Assembly: GCA_044892525.1 (NCBI GenBank)
Contig: CM097887.1
Span: forward strand, 80,826,397 to 80,890,396
DNA: 64,000 nucleotides
DNA from: Schmidtea polychroa
Lineage: Eukaryota
Direction of reading: 5' to 3'
Part shown: positions 16,394-42,618 of the stretch, piece by piece
Layout of the letters: each line of letters begins with the position of its first letter
Position numbering within the stretch: position 1 is the first letter of the stretch
Notes under the pieces: model-generated
Databases searched by the model: none
What the model was told of the DNA's origin: nothing
Seen by the model: only the letters and a program-made list of their open reading frames with translations
Made by a program: the position numbers and the translations under genes

Positions 16394-16879
16394 ATGACGG
16401 AATTCGCAGAACAGATGCAACAATTAATTAATTTCATTAATATAGAAAACGACCCTATTAAAACACTCATACAAAAAAGAAAGCGAATCAACAGCATTCT
16501 ACTCCAAGCAATCGGACACACACCAGTCGTACCTAATCACGTGTTATTGGCCGCAGGTTTAAGCCACTCAGATGAAAAGATAAATCACGAAACAGTATAT
16601 CAATGGTACCTAAAACGACTAAAAAACCCGGCCCTAAATCTAGAATACGAGCGACTAAAAGATCAACTACATACAATATCAGAGGCAATCGAACAAAAGA
16701 TACAAGAGAAACTCACCAAATTGCGAACCTGTCTGTCTTGCAATCTTCGCCCTATACGCATACTATTCTTACCTTGTGGACACCTCAGTCATTGTGAAGA
16801 ATGAGTGAAAGATCTGAAACGATGTACAATATGTAAAAATGGGATAAAAGAATCCCATATGGTTTATTACGGTGATTAA
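16394..16879 (+). pseudogene. IAP-type C-terminal RING E3 ligase ORF without BIR; premature TGA at a Zn-ligand Cys codon
   Basis: CLSC..ILFLPCGHLSHCEE*VKDLKRCTICKNGIKESHMVYY continues in frame past the stop and aligns with the cIAP/XIAP pattern CxxC..FxPCGHxxxCxxC..CPIC. Confidence 0.85.
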
Positions 16880-22107: not shown

Positions 22108-22146
22108 ACAAGAGACGTAACGTATCAAAAAGAAATACGAGACCGG

Positions 22147-23523
22147 ATGAAAACGTTATATCAAAAATCTACAGAAATAATTGAAATTCACCAACAATGG
22201 TTAAAAGAAAAGGAACTACAAGGAAAAATCACGAAACTAAGTACCAGATCCTGCAGACGAACCCCATGGGAAAGAGAGTGGAATACAGAAAATAAGGAAT
22301 GGGAAATCCGGAAAGGAATCTTCGTAGAAACAGACATTGGTGAGACAGAAAGTGAATCGGAGGAAGGAGAAGAGGAACCTCCAGAATATGAAGAGGAAGC
22401 AAGGGGACAGACATCAGATGACGAGAGCGAGACGGATGTCACATCGGAAAGCGAAAATGAAGCGAGACATATTCATGCAATGAGGAAAAAGGAACGTGAA
22501 TATGCCGATATGGACGGCGAGGAAGCGATAGAAGCAAGAGAACGAGAAGAGAAGGAAAGATATAAACAGTTAGGCGATATCTTAGCAATGGGAGCGAAAA
22601 ATCAAAAACGCCAAGTAATAGCATTGGCTAACATCATCCTAAAGACATCAGAGAATATCCACAATCTGAGAGAAATGGCGAAAACAATAGAGGAATACCG
22701 GAATATAATGAATGGTATCCAGAACAGCTAGAACAAATTACTCGAAAATGGAGAAATCAGGAATGAGCACAAGACACCCAGGAGAGGTATCACATCCGAA
22801 TCAAGTATCCGGACAAGAGCATCGAAGAACTAGAGGTGCATCCAACAACAAAGGTTAGAGAATTAAAAAAAGAAATTAGCATATGAAACTCCATTCCATC
22901 TGCAACTATTCGGAAAATCACTAGACGATAATGCAGACGTCGGAATAACACCCATGAGATTGGAAGAGACGAATGTGTTAACAATGGCGGAAACGTTGGG
23001 AAAACCGTTGAAAAGGAAAAGCAAAAATAATAAACCAACTAAAGGCAGTTTGAGTACTCCAAGTCCGAACAAAGCACCAAGTAAATCTAATGAAACCGAA
23101 GAAGTTGAAGAGATAATCCTGGAAGATAGCGACGATGAACCAGGAGAAAGATCACCGCTATTAGTGAGATGGCCGACAGGAGCCGAAATGTGGACTAACA
23201 ACCAACCATCAACAAGTTATCAACAACCAACAAAATTGAACATCGAAGAAATCATCGACAATACTACGGAAACCGAAACGGATGAACAATTCAAGAAGCA
23301 AAGAGAACCAACAAGAATAACACCAGAAGGGCAAACTGATAAAATAATAGATGAATGGAATGAGTGGCTGAGAAATAACGATAGCTCATTACCCAGAACG
23401 AATAACGAAAGAAATCCGAATTACGAAAATACCAGAGAAGCCGGAGCGATGATGGAAAACGGGCAAAAGGAAGACCTAAGAAACAAGGAGAAAAGTCTGA
23501 GTTCAAAACCAAGGAACAATTAA
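22147..23523 (+). pseudogene. Disrupted polyprotein segment: acidic region, a third ubiquitin-like domain (22785-22985, frameshifted in an A7 run) and a low-complexity linker
   Basis: 22147 is in frame with the previous ORF. Removing one A at ~22870 gives YHIRIKYPDKSIEELEVHPTTKVRELKKKLAYETPFHLQLFGKSLDDNADVGITPMRLEETNVLTM, which is ubiquitin-like. Confidence 0.6.
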
Positions 23524-23546
23524 AGCAAGAACAAGGGGAAGTTCGA

Positions 23547-26500
23547 TTGGAAAAGTTAGATAAAATAGTATGGGATCTAAAAGAAGCTCAACCAACGATC
23601 GAAAGAGGAGAAAAATGGATACGAGAATTGATCAAAGATATGTTAATAATAACAAACCCACAACTTAGACGTTTGTGGCAACGGAAAGTAGCGAGTGTGG
23701 AAGCTAGACAATTATGGCACATCGTATCAAGGATAATCCCAAAGTTAATCAAAGAGAAAACGAAAACCACCAAAACGGATTGGGATGAAACAAAGAGAGT
23801 GATTGAACAGCTCACGACAAATGCAAATGATGACGAACATCATCTAGTGGTAATCACTTATTTGATGTATAATTTGATGGGATTAGCTGCAAGGAAAATA
23901 CCTAATAAACAGTTCGCAAATCACGTAGAAATGACAGTGTCAGTCATAGAAAACACTATTGAACCACATATTATCCGTGCCGGAGGATGGAAAAGACTTA
24001 TACAAGCGCCACGAAAAAACGAACAGGAAAGGTCAATGCAAGTTAGATTGAAGAAGTTGCTGAACGAGCTTGAATGGGAATTACCAATGAAAGATCCAGC
24101 CAGTAGAAAAGCGTCAATAAATTCGTTAATGATGACTATGATGATATGGATGTTGTGCACAAGTGGGGCAACGAGTTTTACCATCTACGATTGTGATAAT
24201 ATGATAATGAGAGATAAATACTCATTGAGAGATATAGAAGAATGCAGACAAGCATCACCCAACAAATTGGACATAGTAAAAACAAAAGTTACCTACCATG
24301 TATATCAAGAATCAGATTTCATCAGAACGCAAGCAAGAGAATGCGTTGTATCAAAAAAGGTACTCGCGTATTATTGCGGGCAATATTCGTATTCAACTCT
24401 CATACTACCCGGTCTAGATAAAGAAATCGTATCAATACAAAGAGAGGACTGTAAAGAGCTATTTAGAACCGGAGCGCTAAAAATGCATAACGGAGTGACG
24501 ATACACGGACAAACCGGAATGATAAAAACCGAAAGTGTTTATGTATCCGGAAAGGTGAAATCATCAGATGGGTCATGTAACGGAGGTACGTATACAATCC
24601 GAGGGGAGGTAATATCGGGAGTAGTAGTGATCGAGTCCTATACGGTTGAATTAAAAGAATACGAAGCGCAATTTGACGCAAATAATTACCAAATGAAAAC
24701 CAACCCGGCATGTAGGGCTACAGAAAACGTATGCAAGACAGGAGTATCAACTATAATCTATGAAGCTAACACGCAAAAATGCCGACTCCAATTGTTAAAA
24801 AGTGCTTTGTTTAATGAAGTAAAAGGGGAAATTTATGAGAACGAAAATGACGAGGATGGAAACGAAAGAGTGAGAATGCGAAATGGAAAACCAATGCCAC
24901 CATCTCCCAGAGAAAAAAGACTCTCAACGCAGAAAACACCAACAACACTAATCACCGACGATCCAGATCTAGGTATGAGATTTATCAAAGAGAAAGAAAC
25001 CACCAAATGCGACAGTATAGTATATAAAACCAATTACGCGGGTATCTATATGTCGAGACAAATAATCGATAGAGCAGTGGGAAAGATAGCAACGGAGGAC
25101 GTAAAACTATACTTATATGCAAATAATAAAATGGACTTTCTGTTTCATCGCGGACAGACGACGTTGCAAAAAGTATATTACGATCTTATACAAAACGATT
25201 GTTCGTTGAATAAAGAAATACTGAAAACAAAGCTGGCTATTGCGATAACGCACCCAGATAACACGATGCCATCACTCCCATTACCTGATGGACATTTTGG
25301 TAGAATGGTGGGAGAAGTGATGTACACATACCAGTGTACCAAGACGTATGCACGAATGCCCGAAAAATCCTCACTACCCGAAAAGAAATGTGCAAACGAA
25401 TTAGAGATTCGTTATAAAGGACAAAATCGATTCGTCCAACCAGTCACCAGAATTACGAACCCAGTAGGCTTCTACCCAAATCTATTTAACTGTTCTAATG
25501 CGTACGGACCATTGTATGAAAGACCCGATGGGAAATGGATAATGTTACCAGTAAAAACCATAACAGAGGAGCCCAAGAAATTTGGATTAATAGAACTCGC
25601 CACGGAACAAGTCTTCAAACCCATTGACGTATCAAACGGGGGTATGTATGCCCCAGAAGATTTAGAAATAGCTCGGCTTAACGTATTATTCCCCGCAAGG
25701 CGAGAATCTATATTGTCAAACATGGTCACAATAACTGGGGGAACGAATTACCAATCAGGCCCAAACTATGAACTACTGCTGTCACCAGACCATTTCCAAC
25801 AAGCAACCTCAAATATGATGAAAGCAATGTGGGGAAGATTCTTAGTTTTTGGACAAATGATGGCCGGAATATTGGGGATCATACTCATAATTCAGATAGT
25901 CAGAGTAATACTAACACAAATGTTAGCTTGTTTTGATATATACAAGAGAGAAAAGAAAGTAAATTGGAAAATGATAGTAGGATTTCTACCATTCCTAGCT
26001 AAAACCATGGTTTTACATGGTCACTCAAAAGACATTCATCGGATTAAGCGATTGATCAAAATACTAACAAAGATTAAAGGAACCGACGAGGAAGTAGGCA
26101 GACGATTCCGGAAAGTAATGTACGATGAAGCAACAAGACGACAACTGAAAAAGAATAAGCCAAAATTTTTGGACCGATTCAGAAGTCAATCATCTAACAG
26201 CGATAGTGACGACGATGATAACGGGAACGATAAATGTCTATATCCAAACAGAAACCCAAACGAAAAACCAATGGAAACAGCACCATATTGGGAAAAGGAA
26301 AAGACAAACACCTGGATCGCCAATGGAAGCTATATACCACCGGATATCGTGGGACCACAAGCAGCTTTGACCATGACACAAAATATGTATCCGCAATTAC
26401 CGAGTCAACCCGGTATGCATTATATGCCAACGCGACGTACCAAAAGCGTAGATCAAGCAGATGACGTACGAACAATAGCAGCAATGAATTCACCTGGAGG

Positions 26501-26993
26501 TCCAGCAGTGACAGTCATGATTCAAATCAATGGTAAAGAAACCAATGCTATGATAGACACAGGAGCTAATGTATCAGCGATAGCGATTAATCAAATTCCC
26601 AGTAAGCACTGGAAAGATATCGAATCAACCACAATCCACATCATAGCATGTAGTAAAGAAACAGTGGACGTGGTCGGAAGATGGTGGACTACATTGAGAT
26701 ACCAGGACAACGAAATTGAAACGTATTTGGCAGTAATACCAAAACTTAGCGTACCATGCATAATCGGAACGGATTTGATCCCAGAATTATTAAAAGAAGT
26801 GGTAATTGACTTAACAACCATGTGCCTAAAAGACAGAACAGGCAGAATATGCAAAATGAATGCCATAATCAGATGTCCAGAGAAAATTGTAGTACCAGCA
26901 AAATCGCAGATGATTTGTCAAATAAAAGTGGATACGGGTATGGAAGGAGAAGTTATCTTTGAGCCAAGCAAATCATTCGAAAAGCGACGATAG
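23547..26993 (+). CDS. env: Polyprotein segment: Bcl-2-like domain, internal signal peptide, chuvirus/gB-type envelope glycoprotein with TM, then aspartic protease
   Basis: BH2-like IEPHIIRAGGWKRL; hydrophobic LMMTMMIWMLCTSGATS; FTIYDC..YSLRDIEEC..C..YYCG Cys pattern; TM FLVFGQMMAGILGIILIIQIV; protease MIDTGANVSAI..CIIGTD. Confidence 0.8.
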   Translation: MEKLDKIVWDLKEAQPTIERGEKWIRELIKDMLIITNPQLRRLWQRKVASVEARQLWHIVSRIIPKLIKEKTKTTKTDWDETKRVIEQLTTNANDDEHHLVVITYLMYNLMGLAARKIPNKQFANHVEMTVSVIENTIEPHIIRAGGWKRLIQAPRKNEQERSMQVRLKKLLNELEWELPMKDPASRKASINSLMMTMMIWMLCTSGATSFTIYDCDNMIMRDKYSLRDIEECRQASPNKLDIVKTKVTYHVYQESDFIRTQARECVVSKKVLAYYCGQYSYSTLILPGLDKEIVSIQREDCKELFRTGALKMHNGVTIHGQTGMIKTESVYVSGKVKSSDGSCNGGTYTIRGEVISGVVVIESYTVELKEYEAQFDANNYQMKTNPACRATENVCKTGVSTIIYEANTQKCRLQLLKSALFNEVKGEIYENENDEDGNERVRMRNGKPMPPSPREKRLSTQKTPTTLITDDPDLGMRFIKEKETTKCDSIVYKTNYAGIYMSRQIIDRAVGKIATEDVKLYLYANNKMDFLFHRGQTTLQKVYYDLIQNDCSLNKEILKTKLAIAITHPDNTMPSLPLPDGHFGRMVGEVMYTYQCTKTYARMPEKSSLPEKKCANELEIRYKGQNRFVQPVTRITNPVGFYPNLFNCSNAYGPLYERPDGKWIMLPVKTITEEPKKFGLIELATEQVFKPIDVSNGGMYAPEDLEIARLNVLFPARRESILSNMVTITGGTNYQSGPNYELLLSPDHFQQATSNMMKAMWGRFLVFGQMMAGILGIILIIQIVRVILTQMLACFDIYKREKKVNWKMIVGFLPFLAKTMVLHGHSKDIHRIKRLIKILTKIKGTDEEVGRRFRKVMYDEATRRQLKKNKPKFLDRFRSQSSNSDSDDDDNGNDKCLYPNRNPNEKPMETAPYWEKEKTNTWIANGSYIPPDIVGPQAALTMTQNMYPQLPSQPGMHYMPTRRTKSVDQADDVRTIAAMNSPGGPAVTVMIQINGKETNAMIDTGANVSAIAINQIPSKHWKDIESTTIHIIACSKETVDVVGRWWTTLRYQDNEIETYLAVIPKLSVPCIIGTDLIPELLKEVVIDLTTMCLKDRTGRICKMNAIIRCPEKIVVPAKSQMICQIKVDTGMEGEVIFEPSKSFEKRR

Positions 26994-29900
26994 TTACCCC
27001 TCGCCAGAGAAATAATAACAATAAACCCAGAAGGAGTGATACCGATCAACATCACAAATTTTGAAGAGGAAGACAAAATCATCTACGAAAATGAAAGATT
27101 GGGAAAATTAACTCCAATGATCAATATCGAATTACCAAAAGTGACCAACGAGATGACCAAAGACGACGAATTATGGACAATCGACAGTACATTGTTAACG
27201 GATGCTGAAAGGAGAAAATTGCACCGATTATTAGTAGAATATAAAGATATATTCGCCATCTCAGATTTAGATTTGGGTACATGCGATCAGTGCTCGAAGT
27301 GGAACAAATTATGTGCCGGGATAGGCATGCTGTGGCACCCGGGATTCCAGGCTTTTATGCAGAAATTTTCAGTTGGGGGTGTTGCAAAACTTTGGGGGGT
27401 GTCCAACAATTTGGGGGGGGGGGTGTCCACTCATTTAATCATAAGTTTCAGGGGGTGTACCTGTTTTAATGTGGGGGGTGTCAAACAATTTTGGGGGGTG
27501 GGTAAATCCCTGCGGGATTCTCATTTTTAACCAAGCAAAATGACAGAGATTTTTTGCATGTGTAAATTTGTCTGATAAATAATCGGGGTCACAGTATAAA
27601 TAACTCAACAAACAACTTGCTGGTTTAACTAAAATAAATAAGAGAATATACCTACCTATCCATTACTGCTGCTTGGGAAATTCTTAATTGAATAGAGAAT
27701 AGAGAATAAAGAATATATATATACATACATATATGGATGTACTATGTGTGACCTTAATTGCAGTATTTGTGTGCCTATAAAATGAAATAAGTACCGGGAA
27801 ATATGAAATGAAGTGCCGGGATGCAATTCCGCCTACATAATCAATGCCGGGATAATATCCCGGCTATCCCGCCTCACTTCGAGCACTGCATGCGATGTTA
27901 CCCTACATGCAATACCACTCATAGACGAAACCCCAATTGCATTGAGACCATACAAGCTAGCAGAAATGCAAAAAGAAATAGCCGAAGCAGAAGTACAAAA
28001 AATGTTAGACGCAAAAGTGATCGAACCAAGTTGCTCACCTTGGCAATTCCCAGTGGTCATGGTGAAAAAGAAAGATGGCACCCAACGATTCTGTATCGAT
28101 TATCGAAAGTTAAACGCAGTAACCAAGAGAGATACCTATCCATTGCCGGACATCAATGAAATGTTACTCATGTTGCAAGGGGCAGCATATTTTACTTCTT
28201 TAGATTTAAAAAGTGGATACTGGCAGATTAAAGTCAAAGATGAGGACAAAGAGAAAACAGCTTTCACGTTGGGACGAGATCTATATCAGTTCAGAAAAAT
28301 GCCATTCGGACTGACCAACGCACCAGCATCATTTCAAAGGTGTATGAACTTTGTCACTCATGGAATCAAACAATGTATGGTATATATTGATGATTTGTTA
28401 ATCTATTCAGCGACATTCGAACAACATCTGGAGGATATCCGAAATGTATTTATTCGATTAAGACAATGGAAACTCAAGCTCAAACCCTCAAAATGCGATT
28501 GGGCAAAGGAAAAAGTCACGTTTTTGGGACACATAGTGTCAGCTAAAGGAAAGGAGCCAGATCCAAGAAACATTGAGAAAATAAAAACATGTCCAGCACC
28601 GAAAACTGTCACCCAAGTTCAGGAATTTCTAGGATTATGCGGATACTATCGCAAATTTATCAAAGATTATGCAGGAATTGCAAAACCAATCCAGGAATTA
28701 GTAAAGAAGGATATTTCGTTCATTTGGGGGAAGGAACAACAAGAGGCGTTTGAAACGCTGAGAGACAAACTAATCGAAGCACCTATCCTCGTACACCCAG
28801 ATTTCAAGAAGCCATTTCTATTGGCAACGGATGCAAGCGGGTACGCGGCAGGCGCGATTCTGGGACAATTAGACGATGAAGGAAAAGAGAGAGTAATCGG
28901 GTATTACAGTCGAACATTCAAAAAGCACGAGAAGAACTATTCGGTAACAGAACGAGAAGCATTGGCTATAATACAAGCTATCAAACACTTCCGATATTTA
29001 CTATGGGGACATGAGATATGTATAACCACAGATCACCAACCATTAATGTGGTTAGGGCAACATAAAGAAGCGTCCAGTAGACTGATGAGATGGGCCATGC
29101 AATTGCAAGAATACTCCCCATTTTTAAAATTCAAAGCGGGAAGAGCAAATGCCAACGCCGATTGTATGTCAAGATTTATTTTTCCAGATTTGGTGGATTC
29201 AGAAATGCAACGCATATGCTTAATAGTAGCGGAAGATTTAGATTTCTGTCAATTGCGAAAGGACCAACAAGAGGACGCAGAATTAAAACAAATTATCGAT
29301 TATGTAAAAACCGGAAAGACGGAGGTATATGCGAAAGATCAAAAATTAAAAGAACATATGGATAAACACCGACACCGATATATTATAGAGAAAGATTGGT
29401 TGCTGATAATGGATGGGGAAAAACGATTAATGTGTATACCGGAAAACCGACGAAAAGAGTTACTAACGCAATATCACGATGGGAGATTGGGAGGACATAT
29501 GTCATCAAAAAAAGACGTTAGCAAGAATGAAACAGAAATATTTTTGGCCAACCCTAACGGAAGACGTAACCGAATGGGTGAAAAACTGCCTAACCTGTGC
29601 AACAAGGAAAAACGCTGGATCGAAATGGAAAGCACCTTTGACGCCAATGCCGGTACCAATAGAGCCGATGACAATGATATCAATGGACATAGTTGGTTAT
29701 TACCGGAATCGGATCGAGGAAACGTTTATATTTTAGTGATTACAGACTTTCTCACGAAATTTCCAGAAGCATTCGCGATGCCAGACCAAAAAGCTAAAAC
29801 AATCGCAAAAATCTTAGTCGAAGAGATATGTTGCCGTTACGGGACACCGAAGCAAATCTTGACTGATCAAGGAACTAATTTCATGAGTGAGATAATGAGC

Positions 29901-30236
29901 GAAGTAACAAACTATTTCAAAATCGCAAAACTAAGAACATCTCCATATCACCCTCAAACCAATGGGATGACGGAAAGATTTAATGGAACACTTATACAAA
30001 TGTTATCAAACTACGTCGATCGTCACCAACGAGATTGGGATGAATACATAAATCTATGTCTTATGGCTTACAGAATGTCAATTCATGCATCAACGAAAAT
30101 GAGCCCATTTAAATTAATGTACGGGAGAGAGTGCAACTTGCCAATGGACCTGGAATACCAACCACCGATATCGCAATACATGGAGATAGATGATTATGTT
30201 TCGAAATTCAAAGAAAGAATGCAGGAGATTTGGTAA
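26994..30236 (+). pseudogene. pol: pol (RT, RNase H, integrase core), in frame with the protease across a TAG; disrupted by a MITE and two compensating frameshifts
   Basis: RFCIDYRKLN, LDLKSGYWQI, MPFGLTNAP, YIDD; TDASG, EREALA, TDHQPL; integrase TDQGTNF, YHPQTNGMTERFN. MITE removal gives DLGTCDVTLHAIPL in frame. The zinc-finger CxxC sits in the alternative frame (29479-29736). Confidence 0.97.
27288..27888. mobile_element. 601-bp hAT-type MITE inserted in pol
   Basis: Perfect 14-bp TIR CAGTGCTCGAAGTG. 8-bp TSD CATGCGAT (27280-27287, 27889-27896). Subterminal GCCGGGAT repeats. Confidence 0.95.
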
Positions 30237-33200
30237 ACTGCGGGATTAAATATCAAGTTCTACCAAGAAAGTTATAAAGATTTACACGATCGAAAGAAAA
30301 ACGTGAAGCAACATACGTTTCAAACAGGCGATTGGGTGATGATCGAGACCCCAGAATTAATTCCCGGAACCACAAGAAAGTTACAACGGAACGGAAAAGG
30401 GCCATATGAGATCGTGTTCGTAGGCGAAACCAATGTAAGAGTGAAATTGGTAAATAATCCATTCACCAGGCCAATATACGTAAACGTGGCACGATGCAAA
30501 TCAATTCCAAAAACAGCCACCAGTCAACCAGAAGGCCGTACATTAACCACACGTTCGCAAACCTACAGAATGAACATGATGCAACAACTCGCAGAACCTA
30601 TCACTGGACGATTGGGCATACAACCATCGGAAGCTGAAAAAATCGTACGAGAGGTAAAGATAAAATTACCCGGATGGGCAAAAGATCGATTAGATTTCGA
30701 AATATTAGGAGGATTATTGACGATGATCGAAAACTATGCAAACAGAGAGAGGACACATCCGTTATTGCGAGTAGTTAAAAGTCAATGGCCAATATTATTT
30801 ACAATAACAGATCATTATGGAGACACACCATTACACAAACTCATGAAAGTAGGTAACAACGAGCAAATACTAGAAACAATAGAAGCATTTCACGACTGCA
30901 AGCGATCAACAGAACAAGAAAACAACCAAGGCTACACACCATTAATGATAGCAGCAAACAGAGGCAAAATAAAAGACATTATAACCGCATTACTTGATAC
31001 TGGATCAAAAATAACTACACAAGATCACGAGCGGAAAAACGCACTACATCATGCTATCGAAGGGAAAAGTACCGAGGCGTTCACGTCGTTGATGGAACTA
31101 CTATCATATGAGGACAATCAAGAAGTCGGAAACATGTATGATGGATTATTAACAGCGATCAAAGAGAAACTGACAACAATTACCGGAGTATTAATCACTT
31201 GGAGAAACCCAATTAAAAATAATTATATGATCAACGTAAACGAAGCATTCACGAGAGGAGAGAACACGCTTATGAGAGAAGCTATGAAAGGACATCATTT
31301 ATTCGAAATCCCGAATCAATTACTAGAACGAGGAATAACATTCACAAATCATAAGGATGAGCAGTTATTAAAAAAGCGAATTGACACATTCGAAAAATCA
31401 ATATTCCAATTCATTACTCAGGTACGAAATAAATATTGGGAAACGGTAAGTGTGTTATACATGATGGACACGATGAACAACATCCGCGAGAATTACCTAG
31501 ATATTATTCAAATACTTACCGCAGAGGAACGAATCAATAATCCAACCGGAAAGAAAATGAAAATAAGGCATGGGAAATCAAGAGAACCAAAGTCGCAAAC
31601 GAACCAAACGATCGCAAATAAAGTCATCGAAACAAATTCAATGAGTGTAGATCAAAGAGCAATAATATGCAAAGCGAAAGAAGTGTTCTTTGAGGAAATG
31701 CTAGAGCTCTCAGATGAAATAATAAAAACCGTGCATACATATGCAAGAGATCAAACAACGAATTTGGACATCGGTAAAATCAAAACCTTCTTGCCCCCAG
31801 CATTTACGATGGTAACGAAGGATTCCAGAACACCACTACAACAGGCAATATTAGCAGCGAAAGAAAATAGAGCAATAACGATCATGAGAATCCTTAGGGA
31901 TATGGGCGAGGAAACCAACACGAAAAATGAACAAGGCGAAACCGCCATGATGTATGCAGCTATAACGAAAATACACCCAAAAACACTCCACATACTACAT
32001 CAATCAGGATCGAGACTAGACGAAAAGTCAAACGAAGGGAACTCCACTATGGACTGGGCAACCATACAGCCTAATTTAGAAATGATCAGATTTATTTGCA
32101 AAAATGCGACAAGAGAAGAAGTTGAAAATATATGCAAAAACACAGCTCAATTTCAATGGAATACGGTACGGAAAAATCTAGAAGCAATGAAATTATTATT
32201 AACATGGAGAGTACCACAAAATAATAAATATGCGATAAATGTAAACGAATTCTACGAAAACGGAGAAAACGCGATGGTAAAGAATACATTAACTAAAGGG
32301 GGGACACCAAAAATTATTTTAATAGTACTAAACAGAGAAGACCTCAAATTCACGCAAAATCAGAACGAGCAACAACGAATTGGGAAACATCGTCGTATTC
32401 AAATGAGAGAATTAGTCAAAGAATGGAATAGAAAGAGACATGCTGCGACGGGTAGAAAAGAGTTTGAATTCGAAGCAAAGTTAGCAAGGAACAGAGTGTT
32501 AACAGCATATCGCAGATTATTGAACGATATAAATGTCGAGGACGACATTTTAAACGACAGCGGGGGAGATAAACACGATGACAATGACGGAAAAGGCCGA
32601 AAAGAGGATAAAGGGAAAAGAGAACCGGAAGAGGATAAACCGGAAAACAAGGATTCGGGTACGAGAAGAGAGGGAAACAGCCCGGGAACCAAGACCAAAG
32701 AGGAGGAAAAACCGAATAATGGAAAACAGAGGGTATGCCTACCTTTCACTAACAAAGAAATAGAAACAAATATGATCTTAATGATAATCATGCTAACCAT
32801 GATAGAGTTAGTAACAGCTCATGGAGGGACGAGAACGATAAAAGAAACCAAAGAAGCGGAGAATCAAGATAGCAAAGAGGAAGAACTAAAACAAGAAAAG
32901 AAAAAGCAAGCACAAGAGCAGCAGTGGGATTTAAAGGAAGAATGGGGCCTAAAGGAAAGGTGCATACTAGGAAGATGTATGTCTAGAGCGTATCAGAGAT
33001 TAGTACTGATAAATGAGGACACAGAACCGATAACAGAAGTAAGAATACAAGAAGCATACCGAAATCGAGACGGCAAGAGAATAACGAACGTTAAAGGAAA
33101 AGAGGTGCACCTAGGAAAAGGAGGTGAAGTAGTAATAACGCAGCTCCAACCAAGAAAAGAACACAAAGTCTGTATTTCAAGATTAGGACCAGGTGAGAGA

Positions 33201-33773
33201 TGCCATCAATATGTTACGCAGCAGCAGCCCCCGAAAGAATACACGGTTTGTATCTGGAGGAACGAATCAAAAAGGGAATGCCGACGATACCCGGGGAAAA
33301 GAGGAAAGAAAAGAAAAAACCACGACGAAAAGGACGAAGGAGGAAAGCACAAGAAAACCGGCGAGGAAGCTCAGGACAACTATGTTTCGGAGGAAGAGAT
33401 GGAAAAAATACAAAAGATGGCAAAGGAGGGTATGAACGAGGAAATAACAAGAATACGAGAGAGGATGAAAGGAAATGGCAAAAGAGGAAACGAGAAAAGT
33501 ACAGAAGCGATATCAACATTAACAAACAAGGAAAAACCAGAGAGTATAAGCGTGAAGCAGATGATGTGGATCAGCGGGATAATAATAACAGGGGCATTCC
33601 TAATCATAACGGGGGGAACAATAAAAATAATTAAATATAAACGACATCGCGGAGAACTAGAGATGACCCGAATCAGAAATTTCCAACATCGAGTGAAACG
33701 ACCAAGTGATATCAAACAAGAACAGTGGGTGGAGGCCTGGAACGCTCAGCGCCCTCCAAACTCACGTATATAG
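30237..33773 (+). CDS. Integrase C-terminus (GPY motif) fused to two ankyrin-repeat blocks and a predicted type I membrane protein
   Basis: In frame with pol across a TAA. GDWV..KGPYEI; ANK motifs GDTPLH, GYTPLMIAA, KNALHHA, GETAMMYAA; hydrophobic MILMIIMLTMIELVTA; TM WISGIIITGAFLIITGG. Confidence 0.85.
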   Translation, partial: TAGLNIKFYQESYKDLHDRKKNVKQHTFQTGDWVMIETPELIPGTTRKLQRNGKGPYEIVFVGETNVRVKLVNNPFTRPIYVNVARCKSIPKTATSQPEGRTLTTRSQTYRMNMMQQLAEPITGRLGIQPSEAEKIVREVKIKLPGWAKDRLDFEILGGLLTMIENYANRERTHPLLRVVKSQWPILFTITDHYGDTPLHKLMKVGNNEQILETIEAFHDCKRSTEQENNQGYTPLMIAANRGKIKDIITALLDTGSKITTQDHERKNALHHAIEGKSTEAFTSLMELLSYEDNQEVGNMYDGLLTAIKEKLTTITGVLITWRNPIKNNYMINVNEAFTRGENTLMREAMKGHHLFEIPNQLLERGITFTNHKDEQLLKKRIDTFEKSIFQFITQVRNKYWETVSVLYMMDTMNNIRENYLDIIQILTAEERINNPTGKKMKIRHGKSREPKSQTNQTIANKVIETNSMSVDQRAIICKAKEVFFEEMLELSDEIIKTVHTYARDQTTNLDIGKIKTFLPPAFTMVTKDSRTPLQQAILAAKENRAITIMRILRDMGEETNTKNEQGETAMMYAAITKIHPKTLHILHQSGSRLDEKSNEGNSTMDWATIQPNLEMIRFICKNATREEVENICKNTAQFQWNTVRKNLEAMKLLLTWRVPQNNKYAINVNEFYENGENAMVKNTLTKGGTPKIILIVLNREDLKFTQNQNEQQRIGKHRRIQMRELVKEWNRKRHAATGRKEFEFEAKLARNRVLTAYRRLLNDINVEDDILNDSGGDKHDDNDGKGRKEDKGKREPEEDKPENKDSGTRREGNSPGTKTKEEEKPNNGKQRVCLPFTNKEIETNMILMIIMLTMIELVTAHGGTRTIKETKEAENQDSKEEELKQEKKKQAQEQQWDLKEEWGLKERCILGRCMSRAYQRLVLINEDTEPITEVRIQEAYRNRDGKRITNVKGKEVHLGKGGEVVITQLQPRKEHKVCISRLGPGERCHQYVTQQQPPKEYTVCIWRNESKRECRRYPGKRGKKRKNHDEKDEGGKHKKTGEEAQDNYVSEEEMEKIQKMAKEGMNEEITRIRERMKGNGKRGNEKSTEAISTLTNKEKPESISVKQMMWISGIIITGAFLIITGGTIKIIKYKRHRGELEMTRIRNFQHRVKRPSDIKQEQWVEAWNAQRPPNSRI

Positions 33774-33933
33774 AAAGGAATATGACTGTATATAATTGTA
33801 AAAAGTAAGTATATCTTATGTATATAACAGTACTATATCTTTATATAAGCGCGGTATCAATATTATACAATAACGGGAATCATAAAATAAAATTAAATTT
33901 AGATAAGAGTTGAAAAGTGTATATAAATTAAGA

Positions 33934-34293
33934 ATGGAGCAAGGAAATAACGAAATGAACCACAACACAGTAACCGAAGAATTATGGAAGCAACAATGTG
34001 CCGTATTAGCACAATTAGTGTCTAATTTGCAAGAACAAGGATTGACGATGCAGAAGAACCTAATCGAGAGTATGAACAGATGATTTAGTTATTTAAAAAT
34101 AATCGAAGACCAGAGGTTAAAAATCGAACAAATGCAAAGAGAAATGGAGAGGATAACCCAATATAGCCGAAGACAGGAAATTGAATTGGACAGAATGATG
34201 GAGGAAGCAGAACAGACAGAAATAGAAGACTGGTCAGAATGGCTAATGAGTAGAGAGGAGGGCGGACACGAAGCCGACTCTTCCAAACCATAA
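33934..34293 (+). pseudogene. Short coiled-coil ORF (119 codons) with an internal TGA
   Basis: ATG at 33934, single TGA at 34081, frame continues in the same E/Q/R-rich helical style. Absent from the supplied ORF track. Confidence 0.55.
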
Positions 34294-34378
34294 ACCAAAC
34301 CTAGCTTAAAATGTAAATAATTGTAAATAAAATATCGAACCTGTATCGATAAGAACTATATGTATATATAATTATAGA

Positions 34379-35767
34379 ATGGATAAACGACAAAGAGAAG
34401 AGTTCAGAGAGATTGTCGAACAAGTCCGAAAATCTACAACGATCAGAATACACAAACATGTTATGTGCGGAATATGTGAAAAGTTGCTAAAAGAACCCCA
34501 CCAAACCCTATGTGGATGCAGATTATGTAAGGAATGTATCAGTGAAGCAATAAAGAATAGACCACAGTGGTGCCCGGTGTGTAAAGAGACATTAATATCG
34601 AGTTTAGAAGACACTAACGAGGATAAAGCCGCAGTGAAAGACATGTTAAACACCAATCTGGGATGCAAAAATACCCCATGCGAATGGAAAGGAGTAATAT
34701 GGAAAGTAGTGCAACATATGGGAGAATGTATGTACAGAATCGGCCAGTGTGAAAGGTGCCATAAAACCATTCGAGCAAGCGAAGAAAAAGAGCATCAAAG
34801 CCAGTGTGAAGAGAGACTAGAAAGATGTAAACATTGTGGAGAAATAGATACGTGGAAAAATCTCACCAGCAAACATCACAATGTCCAAGAGGAAAAGGTA
34901 TGTGCAGAGTTCAGTGGGGAATGCCCGAACGGATGCGAGGAAGGGAGAATAATAAAAATAGCCCAACACCTAAAGGAATGTGAAAGGAAAAGAATGACAT
35001 GTGTACTCGGTAAATGGGGCTGTCAGAAGCTACTACACCGAGGAGAGTTACCACATCATTTAGTAGAAAATGCTTCAACCCACGCAGAAATGTGGTCGAC
35101 TGCGCTACAAGAAAGTGAAGAGAAAGTAAAACAAATGGAGATAGAGATAACATCGTTGAAAGTGTTAGTCAAAGAACTACTAGAAGAAAGAAAAGCGTTC
35201 GAAGAAGCCCGAGCTAACATAAAGATGCAAATAAATCGTATAGAAATCAGCAATAATCAGGCCAAGGTGCTACATCAAAAGATAACTGAGATAAATCTAA
35301 ATGAAGTAATACCAACAGCACCCTACGTGTGGAAAATAACGGGAGTAAAAGAAAGAATACGAAAAGCCAAAACCGGAGAAGAGACAAAAATAACGAGCCC
35401 CGCATTCCAGTCTTGGAAAAATGGGTACAAAATGAAAATGAAGATATATCCCAACGGGGACGGAACCGGATTAGATACAGACTTTTCGATTTTCTTTCTG
35501 TTATGCAAAGGGGAATACGACGAAATAATAGAATGGCCGTTCCAGGCAAAGATCGATATTGCACTAATGAATGACCGAAGCATCCACGAACAAAGCTTCA
35601 AGACAACGGGAAACCAAATGTGTTACCAGAGACCTACGGAAGAAGAAGGATCAGCAACGGGAGCGCCTACGTTCATCCTACAACAAAAAGTAGAGGATAT
35701 GGCGAGAAATGACACAGTATATATCAAGATGACTGTGAGGAAAGAGGGGAAGGGTAGAACGGAGTAA
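34379..35767 (+). CDS. Intact, intronless TRAF (RING, TRAF zinc fingers, coiled coil, MATH domain)
   Basis: CGIC..CGCRLCKEC..CPVC RING; Cys/His fingers; MATH YVWKI..SPAF..GYKM..IYPNGDG..FSIFF..GEYD..WPF. Confidence 0.95.
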   Translation: MDKRQREEFREIVEQVRKSTTIRIHKHVMCGICEKLLKEPHQTLCGCRLCKECISEAIKNRPQWCPVCKETLISSLEDTNEDKAAVKDMLNTNLGCKNTPCEWKGVIWKVVQHMGECMYRIGQCERCHKTIRASEEKEHQSQCEERLERCKHCGEIDTWKNLTSKHHNVQEEKVCAEFSGECPNGCEEGRIIKIAQHLKECERKRMTCVLGKWGCQKLLHRGELPHHLVENASTHAEMWSTALQESEEKVKQMEIEITSLKVLVKELLEERKAFEEARANIKMQINRIEISNNQAKVLHQKITEINLNEVIPTAPYVWKITGVKERIRKAKTGEETKITSPAFQSWKNGYKMKMKIYPNGDGTGLDTDFSIFFLLCKGEYDEIIEWPFQAKIDIALMNDRSIHEQSFKTTGNQMCYQRPTEEEGSATGAPTFILQQKVEDMARNDTVYIKMTVRKEGKGRTE

Positions 35768-35923
35768 CCCATCGAATAATGTTGTATATACTAATCTGTA
35801 TATATCGGTGTATATATCCAATAACATATTATATAATAATAGTATGAAAAACCCTAAATACGAAAACCCAAAAATGATGCGAAAATTTCCGAAAAAACAG
35901 TAACTAATGAATAAAAATTTTCC

Positions 35924-37015
35924 ATGATAAAAAGATTAATAGATATCTATGATTTAGAAATGACACAAGAGAAAATAACCGAAACTACGATAGCCCCAAC
36001 CAATATCAACAAGACACAAATTCCCCGAGAATATAACGAAAAATGGAACAAAGTAATGTTCCAACTAACTAATCTCACCCGAAATCACATCGAAGAAGCT
36101 AGAGAGGATGAGAACAGTAAATATCAATGGCTAATACACAATTTAAGAGAGGAAGCAGAAGCATGTAAAAGAGCATCAAAATGGGCGTCATTAGAAAATA
36201 CCCGCCAAGAAGCACACAGCCACTACTTGAAACAGCTAGTGCAGGAAGCTAGAAAGAGACTCACCGATGAGAACACCAAGCGCGAAGCGGAAAAGCAAAT
36301 AGAAGCGAGGAAAATGATGCACTTAGTGGCAGAAGCGAGAAAATGGAAAAGGCAAAACAGTGAAATGAAAAAAGAAATGAAAGAATTGCCCATGAGACTC
36401 GGATATGAAAGTGAACAGGGCAAATGGGAGGAGAATTTAATAATAAAAGAAGAATTGAAACGGTTGAGAAAGCTCGCCGCCGGTAGCCAAACATGGCAAA
36501 CAAAAGCCATGGAATTTGAGCGACATTTGGCAATAAAATGCGACATAAGAGAGCACGAGAACGCCGCAATGGAAGAGATGATAACCCAACAAGCAGGACG
36601 GGTTGTAGAATTAGTGAATCAGGTCGTAGAGATGAAAAGAGACCTTAATGGATTACAAGGATCGCTGGAACAAAGAAACATGGTCCTAGCTGGAAAAAAT
36701 AAAAAATTAGAAAACGAGAGGAAAATGTATACCGAAAATATTAAAAACTTAGAAATAGAAATTGAAAAATGGAAGGGCGACGAGAAAATCAAGGCCCTAG
36801 ACAGACAAATAGAGGTGAAAGACGAAGAGACAAGGTATCTCACCTATCTGCTCGACGAAGAGCTGAACATCACTCGAGCTCTAAGAGACGAAATTAATGA
36901 GTTGAGAGCCCAAATTCCCCAATATTACATACCATATGACCCTATTGCTATCCAGCTACAGGCATCGGTCGAAAGCGATGAGGGATACGTGGGCCAGGAG
37001 GAAACCTTCGTATAA
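35924..37015 (+). CDS. Coiled-coil protein of unknown function (363 aa)
   Basis: Long intact ATG ORF with E/K/R heptad character and the same A-rich codon style as the element. Confidence 0.7.
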   Translation: MIKRLIDIYDLEMTQEKITETTIAPTNINKTQIPREYNEKWNKVMFQLTNLTRNHIEEAREDENSKYQWLIHNLREEAEACKRASKWASLENTRQEAHSHYLKQLVQEARKRLTDENTKREAEKQIEARKMMHLVAEARKWKRQNSEMKKEMKELPMRLGYESEQGKWEENLIIKEELKRLRKLAAGSQTWQTKAMEFERHLAIKCDIREHENAAMEEMITQQAGRVVELVNQVVEMKRDLNGLQGSLEQRNMVLAGKNKKLENERKMYTENIKNLEIEIEKWKGDEKIKALDRQIEVKDEETRYLTYLLDEELNITRALRDEINELRAQIPQYYIPYDPIAIQLQASVESDEGYVGQEETFV

Positions 37016-37127
37016 GGTGATTAAAAAGATAAAAAACTAAAAATCGGGACGTTTACCCAAACAAAAAAATTAAAGTATTGTAAAAGTATTCAAGGGACTG
37101 TAACCCAAACTATTAAATTTTATATAA

Positions 37128-37898
37128 ATGTATATGTATAAGTCGCACTATAGCGCACCATTAACTGTACATATTATAGATATGAAAATCGAGGAAATAA
37201 TAGAAATTATGAGCGACGTAGAAGAGGGAGAGATTGAGGCAGAAACAACAGAAACACAAACGTTAAAGGCCGAGTTACGGGAAGAGAAGTACGAAAACGA
37301 GAGACTAGTAAACAAATATATAGAAGACCGAAAAATGATTAAAATACTAAAGAAGGAGTGCGAAGTGCTAGGAGAAATAAAGAGAGAAGCCGAAGAGAAG
37401 AATGAATGGCTGCAAGAACAACGAAAACGAGGAAGAAATTGGGAAAAGATTGCAGAGGAACTATGGCAAGAGAGGGCAAGCTTCAAGGCAGAAGAAGTAA
37501 TCCAGGATTATTGGAAAACAGAGGCGAAAGAACGCCAAATAACTATAAATAAATTAAATCGACAATTGGAGGAAAAACAACGAGAAAATGAGGAAATGAA
37601 GAAATGGATTCGCAAATACCAAGAGATCGAGAGAAAACAACAACAACAACAACAACAACGAAACCTTTCGCAGGAAAACGAACAAGATTTCCTACAAATC
37701 GAACTAAAAAGGAATCTCGATAAAAAACGGGAAGAAATTAGAAGATTGAAAAAGGAGATAAGGCACATGAAAAGGGAGGCCCGCGAAAAGAACAGACAGT
37801 TGGAAATGCTGCCCGAGTTAAGACACATAGTCATTAAAGCGGAATCCACCCTGATGAGGGTCGCCGAAAATAATCCCAAAGGAGAACCGCTTAACTAA
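37128..37898 (+). CDS. Coiled-coil protein of unknown function (256 aa, polyQ)
   Basis: Long intact ORF, E/K-rich helical, with a CAA repeat. Confidence 0.65.
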   Translation: MYMYKSHYSAPLTVHIIDMKIEEIIEIMSDVEEGEIEAETTETQTLKAELREEKYENERLVNKYIEDRKMIKILKKECEVLGEIKREAEEKNEWLQEQRKRGRNWEKIAEELWQERASFKAEEVIQDYWKTEAKERQITINKLNRQLEEKQRENEEMKKWIRKYQEIERKQQQQQQQRNLSQENEQDFLQIELKRNLDKKREEIRRLKKEIRHMKREAREKNRQLEMLPELRHIVIKAESTLMRVAENNPKGEPLN

Positions 37899-37936
37899 AC
37901 ACCACTAAGACCAATTGTAAATATAATGAATAATAA

Positions 37937-38596
37937 ATGTATAATAGTACAATGCAACGCGGAGTGGCGATAATCATAATAGTAGTGATGCATCTGATGG
38001 AAAGCCAACAAACCAATACCCAACCGAAAATTGTACGAGATTTCCGAAATCCGAACCAAAAATCCATACAAGAGTCCTGTCAATGCTCATACCCCAATGC
38101 AATAAAAGCCAACATCATCCAAAATCTCCAATCAGTCCAATCATATGTCAACAACATCAGAATGATATGTAAAAAGAACCCCATGTGTAAAATATTAGAT
38201 AAACGAATACTCGAACAAATCCAACAATTCGACCAATTGAAGCAACAAGTGCACCAAGAAGATCTTGGAAATCTCGCAGGAAGTACAAAAACACCTCCCG
38301 AAATCAATGACACCCATTATCTCATATATGTGGTGATCGCAGAGACCCTCCTCCTATGTCTACCAATACTCATGAAAATTTACGAAGTTAGAAATAGATG
38401 TAGAATCTCGACATCAATAAGAGTAACCTCGAACCAAAATCCTCAAGAAGTGCCCCTGACAAATCTTAACCCAACCCCATTCCGACCTTGAATCCCGAGT
38501 AACCAACCAATCCAGCCGAATGCTAACAGTCAGACCTATCTCAACATCAATACCCAAACCAACCAACAGCCGCCAGCAGAAGCAGCAAATGGTTAA
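37937..38596 (+). CDS. Small predicted type I membrane protein (signal peptide, Cys-containing ectodomain, TM); probable premature TGA at 38489
   Basis: GVAIIIIVVMHLMES signal-like segment; TM YLIYVVIAETLLLCLPILM; the frame stays open for 34 codons after the TGA. Confidence 0.6.
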
Positions 38597-38827: not shown

Positions 38828-41800
38828 TGTTGGGCTGAGCCGAAGGGTAGCTGAGAAATCAGGTTAAACTTAACTAAAGTAAAATAAAAAATAAAATAAA
38901 TAGATTGACGAATAAAATAGAATAGAATATAAGAAAAAGCAATAATTAGAAAATAAGAATTAAAACAAAAAATATAAAAATAAGAACAATTAAAATAGGA
39001 CAATAGAATGACAAAAAATAACGTAAAATGTAGTAGATAATAAGGAAATTAAGGAAAATAAATAAAAACACAATAAAAATAAAGAAAATAGGAAGAAATA
39101 ACTCAAAAACAAGAAAAATAAATTAAATTAATAAAATTAAGCGGTACTCAATTCTGATTGGTCCGCATAAACGAAAAATATCTATATAAGTAAACAGCAA
39201 ACTCACTATAGTCAATGTTAAAACCAAACCAATTACAGGTAAGAAATAGTATTAAGTAATGTAAAATGTTAAAACCAAACCAATTACAGTTACAGGTACT
39301 CGACAATCCAGAAAACCGACCGACACTCAGACGACTATTAGGAACAGTTCTATTGACAATTCATTCATATAACCGATTTGATTAGTGTATATTTCGGCTC
39401 AGCCTTTGGAATCACAGAATTTTTCAAACAATAAGTAAGGATGTATTGCTATTGTAAAATTTGTTTTTTCAAGGATTAAATATTTTATTATATTAACGTA
39501 ACTTTTGAATAAAAACTTCTCCATTCGATCTCAATTTTTTAATGATAATATAGTTCGTAAATTAATTTAAAGGTTAATGATATATGAATGTTTATGATAT
39601 GTTTTGTCGTCGAACGTATTGATTGTGATAAAATTATTTTTGAGAAACGTGGAGTTGAGGAGACCCACGCCATGGTGTGAGGAGCCTTCGGGAGCTCAGC
39701 CGGCGGGTGTGGATCTCTTCAATCACGCAGCTGACGTGGGCCGGAATGTGGGGGTTTCCTCACGGGTCCGTCGCTGAAGGAAGTAAAATGCTGCAAGCAC
39801 GAGTTTAAAGTATAGAGGAATGCATTCAAATATTGAAAAGTAGAGCAATCTTAATTGAAAATGACTGAGGTGGCTACAAATTCTTATTAGACATCACACT
39901 CTGAAATTTCATCTGACATCAGAAATCGTATTCTTGCCTCAACTGACACTCTATCTTCTAGTGGCAAAATACTCTTCTATCAAAACTCACGTCAATAGAG
40001 AAACTGAGTACTAATATGTTCATTAAATGTAAAATCATAATATAGGAAGCATAAACGAAGATTTATTCAACAAAAGTTTTAGTACTAATATATTTTTCAA
40101 CAAACACTTTAATTTTTTCATTTCTCCTGAAAATCCACAATAGCGGCAACATGAAGTTCTTTCTATAAATGACTCTTTCGACCAATATAGGTGGAACTCT
40201 TTTGAATGAGTTGCTGTAAATATTCCACGAAATCACAACATCCAAATTGAAAACCGGAGGAAACTGCACATCATGAGAATAAATTCCAACGTTCATGCTC
40301 GATGAGAACTAATCATAGGTAGCATATTGAATAACTGAAATAAATCCAACTCGCGGTGTGGGACGATCAGCTGCAACCCGTTAACGTAGATAATGAGAGA
40401 GCAGACGAGACAAGTCACACGCATTGCTACACATAAATACACACTTACATATGCCGCATGCATTATTTTCCCAGTCAGCTAATGACGATGAGAACAAAAA
40501 TTGAAGTACACGCACATGACATAATTATCTCCGATCGATATCTAACTTTCAGATTCATGTTGTTAATGAGTTCTACGAGTGAGCTATGCATTACCGGATG
40601 ACTGTTATCAATTAGCTAGATTTCATAGATTAATTGCACCAGTAAATTCCATAACAAAAATGAATAGATCGATTTTCAGGATAGGAATAAAAATCTAATC
40701 ATACTCGAATCCTTAAAAATCTAATGGTAGCACAGTGATTGAATATGTTTTTTCGATTTTCATATACCAATATGAATTACGATTTGAGGTAATTAATTTA
40801 AGGAGCATTCCCGCGGCACTAGAGAACTTTGTTTTTACGTTTTTTAAAGATAAATAACTGTATTCGAAAAGTTATATGTAAAAATGAATATTAATTATTT
40901 AATTATGCAAACATTCTAATGTTTCCTAAACAATTTCTACGAAACCGATAATTCTAACGTTCACTGGGTCAATACATTTGCGAGTCATCTTTCACCTAAA
41001 TATTTGAGAATCTCAGATAACAATAGGTAATGGATATTCTAAGTATAATCATAAACTTTTGGCAAAGTATTAATCAGATGTTAATTTCTCTTGCAACCCC
41101 AAATAGACATCCAAGAATTCACTGAATGCAATTATAAAACACTATTTCTAACGGAACCATATCATTGACCTTTTATCCATTTTACTTAATTTTTCGAAAT
41201 TAATAAATGATCATGTCCCATGCTGGTTTAGTAGAAATCGCTGATCTTAATTCTTATTCTCATTGTTTTTTCTTTGTTACAGTTATCAAAAATGTTGCCA
41301 AGCTCGAGGCCGTCGCTCAAACCCTGTTTCTCCTGTGCCGACAAAAACACCGTAATCCGAGAATTACAGGCCCAGATCGGTCGATATAAAAAGAAGATCG
41401 ACGATCTGGAAGGTACATGGTTTAGCCCAGTACAAATGAAGGAGGTGCAAAAGAAATTGTACCGCAGCGAGCATTGTCGCGATGCTTTGATAAGCGAAAG
41501 TAGAGCTCAGCGTAACCTAATCAAAGAGCAGTCCGAAGCTCTACATAAAGTTTACGTTCAAGCCGCGACAACCCCGAAGATCGTTAGTATCCCGATTAAA
41601 GAAGCGGACAATATCTTCCCCGTCCACCATGAACCTTCATTTAGTTCACCACCCTTATCAAAAAGATCTTGTCGTGAATGCGTGGAGGCCGACCTCTCCC
41701 CCAGGCCAACGGACGTACCTACTCCCGGCACCGGCAAGGTATTGCCATCAACCACGACGTCCTCAGAAATCTTGTCTGCCAACCCTTCGAAACCTAAACG

Positions 41801-42618
41801 TCGCCAATTATCCAGAGCGGAGCGTAAGAAGCGTCAACGCGAACGAGCAATCGTCAAACAACGAGAACTATCTTCCAACCACCCAAGTACTTCGAATGAC
41901 CCCCCCGTAACGATCGATCTAACCGTAGGGATCCCAGGGCGAATAATATCTGCCGCTGGCGTGACTTGGGAGGAGAATGCCTCCGAGGTTTTTGATCTAG
42001 ATGAACTATTGGCGGATGCAGAATGGGAGAAGTGAGAATCGCAACACAATACAACCGTGCAGAGTGTTAATGGACAAATAAACTATCATGACTCCTTTTC
42101 CTCTTAATCCATTTTCCACTAAGTGTACTCGTTATATAGTGCCATAATTATATAGTGTATTATGATAATAGAATAGAGAAATTTGTGGGTTATTTCTTGT
42201 TGTTGTTTTGATTTAAATAGTTGTTGTAAAGGTTTAGAGTAGTGTTCACAAAGTGATCCATAAAGCGAGAGTAAATTTTGAGTCCGAGAGGCAATAGTCA
42301 ATTTTGTGTCAAATTATGGGACAGGGTAGAGAGAGAATCTGATGAGGTAAACAGACGTAAGTCCTTCCATCGGCAGTCAGCAAGGGAAGTCGAGGCCTCA
42401 GTAAGGAGTAGTCCTAAGGTAGGGGCTCACCTGCTTACTGGAGTCTCGCCGGCATAGCACATTTCCAACGTGAAGCAATTCGCGGGTGCTATGTTGGAGA
42501 GTAAGTTGTGCGGGGTCCTGCTCCGGGTTGACACGGCGTATGTAGCGTGATGATATGGGCACGCATCCCCTAGACAAAGATGTAGATTGAGCAGAGTCAA
42601 CCGAGCGCTACCCCAGCA
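38828..42618 (+). repeat. 3' LTR (3,791 bp)
   Basis: Direct repeat of the 5' LTR. Ends CCCAGCA followed by the TSD CTGT. Confidence 0.97.
41207..42035 (+). CDS. 3' LTR copy of the LTR-encoded ORF
   Basis: Identical to 14734-15562 except for one S/N change. Confidence 0.65.

Follow-up and report, generated by a model that had tools for sequence, protein, structure and literature searches.

Why would a giant retroelement carry a complete gene for an animal signaling adaptor, and is such a gene a quirk of one insertion or a component that the element lineage maintains? The question is raised by a TRAF gene that lies inside a provirus in the window, by which we mean the whole 64,000-nt stretch of planarian DNA analyzed here. 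The first-pass annotation of the sequence had proposed a retro-captured adaptor, adjusted to the composition of the element and possibly still expressed from a dead copy. We compared the gene with its sister copies, with a second element family and with host TRAFs. The features that enter the comparison are collected in Table 1.

The TRAF frame of 462 codons is free of stops and introns on the plus strand, as first described, and the four TRAF modules that had been read from the letters are recovered, the zinc fingers by ligand spacing. Its RING matches Pfam zf-C3HC4 slightly below the curated cut-off (E 4e-4), and residues 23–155 match solved RING–zinc-finger pieces of TRAF6, TRAF5 and TRAF2 (phmmer, E 5e-15 to 1e-8). 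The zinc-finger array was recognized by its Cys/His spacing, which aligns with that of host and second-family TRAFs that do match Pfam zf-TRAF; the window protein itself gave no match to this family. The coiled coil (TRAF-N) is a single helix in front of the MATH domain and aligns with the coiled coil of TRAF3, and the MATH domain matches Pfam with an E-value of 5e-25 and has TRAF3, TRAF1 and TRAF2 as top PDB matches. An AlphaFold model derived from a 24-row alignment (mean pLDDT 79.9, pTM 0.38) folds into a RING followed by zinc fingers in an array, a helix of 73 residues and a beta sandwich, and Foldseek finds its best matches in domains of TRAF1, TRAF2 and TRAF3 (E 4e-15). A word-indexed homolog search and a search of a phage collection returned no match.

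Eight cysteines serve as zinc ligands in the RING, the usual histidine being replaced by cysteine as in planarian host TRAFs, and these ligands are invariant across 52 element copies, single-copy changes aside. The replacement occurs in 19 of 112 RING matches among stored proteins; being common to host TRAFs and echinoderm TRAF3-like proteins, it was rejected both as an element novelty and as a strict planarian marker. In codon use, the gene belongs to the element, as had been noted from its A-rich style: its four-fold sites (A 0.49, T 0.10) resemble those of the element's gag, env, pol and ank regions (A 0.50–0.53, T 0.11–0.13), unlike those of a host GALNT gene (A 0.35, T 0.36) and of host TRAFs (T 0.26–0.41).

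The carrier is a Burro-type Gypsy element of 30,264 bp with LTRs of 3.75 and 3.79 kb, flanked by a target-site duplication. Along its polyprotein, Pfam identifies Gag with CCHC knuckles, a ubiquitin-like stretch, a Bcl-2-like stretch (a weak match, E 0.017), a Monjiviricetes-type fusion glycoprotein, protease, RT, RNase H, integrase and ankyrin repeats. According to the parts available of their description, the giant Gypsy-like planarian elements Burro1–4 and GYPSM1 have in common with it a length of ~30 kb, multi-kb LTRs, a Gag with CCHC knuckles, Bcl-2-like and ankyrin regions and an env-like glycoprotein placed in frame after gag and before pol (PMC6431247). The ORF within the LTR has a counterpart of 247–261 aa in nine of ten sister left ends fetched; an acceptor-like tract lies 9 nt upstream of it, and it is kept in LTR variants that are only 65–70% identical in DNA. 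A tandem array of a 74-bp unit occupies 17443–18034 in the 5′ leader and is also found in sisters. No tRNA gene was found in the 64-kb window.

Table 1 Features of the TRAF-bearing element and of the second-family cassette (positions in the window unless a locus is given)
Feature	Position	Strand	Basis or remark
4-bp target-site duplication CTGT	12351-12354 and 42619-42622		
5′ LTR (TG...CA)	12355..16103	+	7 mismatches and 3 gaps against 3′ LTR
247-aa ORF within LTR, no Pfam family	14819..15562; second copy 41292-42035	+	
5′ accessory ORF, IAP-type RING	16394..16804	+	Pfam, sisters; cut short by a stop within the RING
Broken Burro-type polyprotein	19327..33773	+	Pfam; sister comparison
~600-bp non-coding repeat inserted in pol	27288..27888	.	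not in 10 sisters compared
Small accessory ORF	33934..34293	+	119 codons in 36/39 sisters; stop private to window copy
Doubled TGTAAATA motif ending in AATAAA, putative poly(A) signal	34312..34331	+	19 nt past small ORF stop
TAG one base before TRAF start, putative 3′ splice acceptor	34375..34377	+	
Full-length TRAF ORF, 462 aa	34379..35767	+	ORF listing, Pfam, phmmer, structure matches
RING, aa 30-68	34466..34582	+	Pfam, phmmer, alignment
Zinc-finger array, aa 96-235	34664..35083	+	alignment, phmmer
Coiled coil, aa 232-304	35072..35290	+	predicted structure
MATH / TRAF-C domain, aa 316-453	35324..35737	+	Pfam, alignment, structure match
Open coiled-coil-like accessory ORF	35960..37015	+	start conserved in 40/40 copies
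Open coiled-coil-like accessory ORF	37128..37898	+	
Open accessory ORF, hydrophobic stretches near both ends	37937..38491	+	membrane-protein-like by inspection
3′ LTR	38828..42618	+	LTR pair comparison
Second-family cassette: small ORF, TRAF 474 aa, BIR-RING 392 aa, two coiled-coil-like ORFs, 328-aa ORF with hydrophobic start	L129:2026-8980, G000:C1		

For the comparison with sisters, 10 kb around each of 39 sister copies was fetched. The window polyprotein contains four premature stops, common to 0/8, 0/9, 0/10 and 0/35 sisters, respectively, and about five frameshifts; together with the ~600-bp insertion they leave gag-pol of this copy dead, in agreement with the earlier description of a dead provirus. 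For the repeat itself we count 996 first-look candidates in the genome. A non-autonomous lineage that has lost gag-pol and kept the TRAF is unsupported, because none of the sisters has any of these premature stops. The earlier statement that neighboring ORFs carry stops applies to the upstream side (polyprotein, small ORF and 5′ RING ORF) and fails downstream, where three ORFs are open.

An intact frame amid broken neighbors had been taken to hint at upkeep or expression of the TRAF, an argument that the numbers do not bear out. At the lesion density of the window copy (10 lesions in 13.8 kb, a count entered by hand), the probability that the 1.39-kb TRAF frame carries no lesion is ~0.37. The codon changes private to the window TRAF comprise two non-synonymous and no synonymous ones, numbers too small to prove neutrality, and one of them affects MATH residue 368, which is nearly invariant in the 24-row alignment and differs in the window copy only. 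Most likely, the window copy is a dead insertion, and its TRAF frame has simply not been hit yet. That it still expresses the TRAF and is kept by host-level selection, as a domestication in progress, appears very unlikely to us: in its favor, the TRAF keeps its frame, its start and the acceptor-like AG, neither LTR is damaged, the three ORFs farther downstream have no stops, and 24 private substitutions in 9959 positions predict ~18 LTR mismatches where 7 are seen, as would fit a once-transcribed defective parent copied in trans; against this reading stand the lesion probability, the private changes with their hit at a nearly invariant position, and the density of broken frames across 40 copies, which is similar for the TRAF (6/40 in 1.4 kb, ~0.12 per kb) and the end of the polyprotein (24/40 in 5.4 kb, ~0.17 per kb; both calculated by hand).

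The deficit of LTR mismatches (7 versus ~18, calculated from the internal region 28379–38378) could stem from a trans-copied defective parent, from LTR conversion or from unsampled sisters. Compared with those of ten sisters, the LTRs (12355–16103) show patchy identities of 65–89% in most cases and 95–97% in two, with 92–97% in internal regions. Because the LTRs differ far more between copies than the internal regions do, the comparison suggests LTR swapping between copies.

Is the TRAF confined to this insertion, as the first-pass annotation had considered? It is not: all 40 scored DNA matches to the TRAF are full length with 93–100% identity, the genome holds 359 first-look candidates, and a 26-nt pattern at the TRAF start has at least 248 exact matches (reversed control 0). 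The full TRAF is therefore cargo of the family in hundreds of copies, not a quirk of the window copy. A genome search with a host TRAF led to 91 places; among 20 picked for diversity, 19 are element TRAFs and one is host-type, and in all 19 the ankyrin region and the downstream ORFs adjoin. The element TRAFs fall into two classes ~70% identical, with saturated synonymous sites and 33 of 36 Cys/His positions kept (L106 was omitted from the divergence calculation on account of a one-codon gap). Of the 40 close copies, 34 have an open TRAF frame, whereas 16 are open over the final 5.4 kb of the polyprotein; both shares are biased upward because the 40 copies were best matches.

The dN/dS comparison that had been proposed for the gene yields purifying selection on the family. 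Over 780 non-independent pairs, TRAF pN/pS is 0.14, like pol (RT/RH 0.08–0.14 per bin; the overall RT/RH and ANK means are inflated by unmasked non-homologous flanks, which were masked for the following test), and all modules are constrained (RING 0.09, zinc fingers 0.16, coiled coil 0.15, MATH 0.11). TRAF variants shared between copies have a w of 0.12 versus 0.27 for private variants (Fisher p 1e-4); the corresponding values are 0.08 and 0.26 in RT/RH, and a like contrast is seen in ANK and ORF 35924. Therefore, selection acts on replicating element lineages. We assign next to no probability to the TRAF being neutral passenger DNA: only the window copy's own drift speaks for it, and at the family level it is refuted by a TRAF pN/pS of ~0.1–0.14 at every depth with pS > 0.05 and by retention of the gene in two families that share 29% identity in their TRAFs and 42% in their Gags. 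As for neutral evolution, named earlier as a refuting outcome, purifying selection thus holds for the family, and its sign is missing in the window copy (two non-synonymous private changes, no synonymous one).

The second family is Burro1-like. Read from two fetched copies, its cassette consists of a 4791-aa polyprotein that contains a MATH domain, a small ORF, a full TRAF of 474 aa and, directly adjoining the TRAF, a BIR-RING (IAP) gene. This TRAF is 29% identical to the window TRAF and occupies the same place in the element, downstream of the polyprotein. It is open in 20 of 20 loci, with 338 candidates in the genome. Both marks of Burro1 sensu stricto, MATH in the polyprotein and a BIR gene, are present in the second family and were not found in the window element. 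Its 40 best TRAF copies are ~100% identical; the burst of this family is therefore, by sequence identity, very recent.

Where did the TRAF come from? A full-length tree of 31 rows unites the two accessory TRAFs with a support of 100/97 and nests them in a larger clade (100/99) that also holds host single-exon TRAFs, Dendrocoelum TRAFs and unnamed proteins; the phylogeny against host TRAFs, proposed earlier as a check, thus places the element TRAFs inside the triclad TRAFs. In a 46-row tree of MATH domains, the accessory TRAFs join the MATH of the second family's polyprotein (93/94). Both trees were calculated under LG+G4 from rows hand-picked out of 135 and contain long, compositionally odd branches. 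A mixture-model tree without the second-family TRAF supports the triclad clade with 86/91, and a quick 135-row tree does not join the element MATH and the Burro1 MATH. In a library of 1.84 billion proteins, the best full-length matches include Dendrocoelum TRAFs at 28–32% identity. These trees make it likely that the TRAF was captured once, long ago, from host TRAF genes. Burro elements reportedly occur in Geoplanidae and Dugesiidae only (PMC13465017, from the portion available), and the host TRAF lineages have Dendrocoelum members; the direction of capture was therefore likely from host to element. The trees single out no host TRAF as the donor.

The host single-exon TRAFs (L051, L054, L055, L059, L064 and L107) resemble the element TRAF in length (~450–470 aa), architecture, Cys-for-His RING, single frame and tree clade, as do Dugesia japonica TRAF-2-like A and Dendrocoelum TRAF-2/4/5. 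The host frames span 454–476 codons; L059 is single-copy and groups tightly with a Dugesia japonica protein. Planarian host TRAFs differ from the window TRAF in their host codon use and are 27–34% identical to it. The proposed retro-capture is supported with respect to host origin and compositional assimilation; the intronless state had to be rejected as proof of it, because the host TRAFs closest to the element gene likewise have a single exon, so that a lack of introns alone does not demonstrate retro-capture. A search for a spliced retrocopy of the TRAF message found none, its two matches both being ordinary elements.

How would a gene at this position be expressed? UGUA combined with AAUAAA is a 3′-end signal. 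The TGTAAATA doublet ~60 nt upstream of the TRAF occurs once in the 30-kb element and nowhere in the rest of the window, and the same doublet precedes the second-family TRAF (29% identical), which also has an AG shortly ahead of its start. In the second family, all seven TGTAAATA motifs in 10 kb sit in spacers shortly past stop codons. At the other end of the spacer, a YAG stands 1–2 nt before the TRAF ATG in 58 of 58 copy stretches of both classes, one variant being CAG. An acceptor-like AG precedes four of six accessory starts in the window (p 0.03) and five of six in the second family (p 0.01), a modest tally for which the interval had been widened from 1–2 to 0–3 nt after the second family was seen. 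Since the gene stands behind the polyprotein stop, it needs its own message, and these signals make it likely that the TRAF is made as a separate spliced, polyadenylated message. Such a message would be formed either by splicing from the LTR leader or by trans-splicing of a spliced leader, a mechanism that serves operons in flatworms (PMC8629364, in the part available). Alternatively, an internal promoter with forkhead-like sites may drive the TRAF.

The sequences show the domain content, the number of copies, selection acting on variants that copies share, an equivalent gene at this place in the second family and conserved spacer signals. We consider it probable that the full TRAF is Burro cargo under purifying selection, captured once from the host, expressed from its own spliced message and acting as a pro-survival trimeric adaptor and ubiquitin-ligase scaffold. 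By analogy with TRAF2/3, the protein would trimerize as an adaptor and RING ubiquitin-ligase scaffold; by analogy with the Bcl-2-like and IAP cargo, it would tilt host death and immune signaling toward survival of the cell that replicates the element, acting beside the Bcl-2-like cargo and, in the second family, the BIR-IAP. The constraint on all TRAF modules (pN/pS 0.09–0.16) counts for the adaptor role. As far as the accessible parts of the literature report, the BIR-RING of Burro1 guards stem cells from apoptosis (cited in PMC13465017), and host traf-2A/B are required for tissue upkeep (PMC8807557, PMC7586133), their RNAi leading to head regression and delayed regeneration (PMC8807557). Against a survival role count the peptide-groove residues, which depart from those of TRAF3, the lack of a BIR-IAP after the TRAF in the window's family and the viral precedent, the only solved viral TRAF compared, which promotes apoptosis according to the part of its description available (PMC3352826). 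As for the binding to the IAP-RING that had been proposed as a check, the RING ORF gave no BIR match in Pfam and is cut short in the window copy, and the textbook TRAF2–cIAP contact is therefore unavailable within the window's family.

The peptide groove bears on a different reading, in which the element TRAF is a decoy that co-assembles with host TRAFs or takes their partners and so damps JNK/p38/NF-kB immune signaling. We mapped onto the element TRAF, by alignment, the positions that we take to face receptor peptides in TRAF2/3. Position 355 is Lys in place of Arg in 43 of 52 copies and the serine triad 413–415 is missing, so that the groove is unlike that of TRAF2/3 and partly unlike that of host TRAFs; groove positions 408–414 differ between the two element classes, and the identity to any host TRAF is only ~30%. 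These points favor a decoy. However, the RING and zinc fingers remain complete and strongly constrained (pN/pS 0.09 in the RING), whereas classical dominant-negative TRAFs lack the RING, and the share of variable sites in the groove does not exceed that in the rest of MATH (7/18 versus 53/127, p 1.0), on which ground diversifying selection on the groove was also rejected. On balance, we hold a decoy to be unlikely.

Still more improbable, in our estimate, is a service to the element's own life cycle, such as ubiquitin-dependent particle assembly, trafficking or protein turnover, in place of host death signaling. Such a role would suit an element that has, besides the TRAF, another RING gene, a fusion glycoprotein, a stretch resembling ubiquitin and ORFs that look like membrane proteins, and the second family has a duplicate MATH within its polyprotein; the co-cargo (Bcl-2-like stretch, BIR-RING) points instead to apoptosis control. 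We retain the survival-promoting adaptor as the preferred reading.

How does this gene relate to known systems? A TRAF-C domain on Burro and a virus-encoded TRAF are already known from the parts available of PMC6431247 and PMC3352826, respectively. MATH_TRAF_C is named for Burro1–4, and a Dugesia tigrina element has it in an upstream accessory ORF (PMC6431247). In contrast to the Burro1–4 description, whose available part gives a MATH_TRAF_C domain only, the window TRAF is a whole RING–zinc-finger–coiled-coil–MATH gene downstream of the polyprotein, and the window's family has no MATH match in the polyprotein pieces scanned and no BIR-IAP found after the TRAF. Burro1 B-IAP (cited in PMC13465017, as available) is likewise a death regulator of host origin that an element of this kind carries as an accessory gene; the TRAF is a different protein, and the place after the TRAF holds a BIR-RING in the second family and none in the window's family. 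Megalocytivirus ORF111L shares RING, coiled coil and MATH with the element TRAF but differs in its length of 296 aa, its fish DNA virus genome, its closest relatives among fish TRAFs and its pro-apoptotic action through TRADD (PMC3352826, from the excerpts available); it is an independent TRAF capture. Vertebrate TRAF2/3/1/5 provide the best sequence and fold matches of the element MATH and coiled coil and differ in the RING His, the groove Arg and the serine triad. They also have more zinc fingers. In the literature searched we found neither the full-length TRAF gene nor the selection on it, a common origin of the gene in both families or the spacer signals; Grohme 2018, Jurka 2007 and Lee 2026 may cover the ORF.

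The window copy itself is ordinary. What matters is that strong selection has preserved a complete signaling adaptor of animals in a lineage of LTR retrotransposons, on both sides of a deep split between families. Provided that it is expressed, the TRAF would extend the reported anti-apoptotic mutualism of Burro1 from a caspase inhibitor to an upstream signaling hub. With public data it can now be tested what share of the expanded TRAF/MATH transcripts of planarians (PMC6109357, in the part available) is Burro cargo. The same applies to the traf, ankyrin and E3 transcripts degraded by SMEDWI-3, which share domains with Burro cargo: among SMEDWI-3 targets, ankyrin repeats, E3 ligases and zinc fingers of the TRAF type are over-represented, and the main text, in its available portion, does not mention Burro (PMC6824462). 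Tentatively, and with more doubt than confidence, one may go further and propose that Burro runs a captured TRAF–IAP–Bcl-2 survival module from an operon-like cassette with a poly(A) signal and an acceptor for each gene, signals that are conserved across families 29% identical in protein, and that its hundreds of TRAFs outnumber those of the host, feed the planarian TRAF expansion and the SMEDWI-3-degraded transcripts and aid stem-cell survival. The elements cannot explain the whole TRAF expansion, because the host has its own intron-containing tandem expansion in a separate clade. An origin of that host expansion from the element was rejected on its separate position in the best trees, although an AU test did not reject it (p-AU 0.22). 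The host tandem families, with repeated short internal exon-like units, lie at ~3–5 Mb and 115–121 Mb of G000:C2 (L050–L078).

Elsewhere in the window, a single-exon gene resembling polypeptide GalNAc-transferases, with host codon use, occupies 62418–63908 on the minus strand. Inverted repeats of 787 nt, partly N, at 44814–46814 surround a 206-aa ORF (45515–46135) that is GIY-YIG-like by eye. On the two sides of the element, at 6901–12110 and 42922–43374, lie ORF pieces that by eye resemble type-B DNA polymerases and that may represent a Polinton-like remnant.
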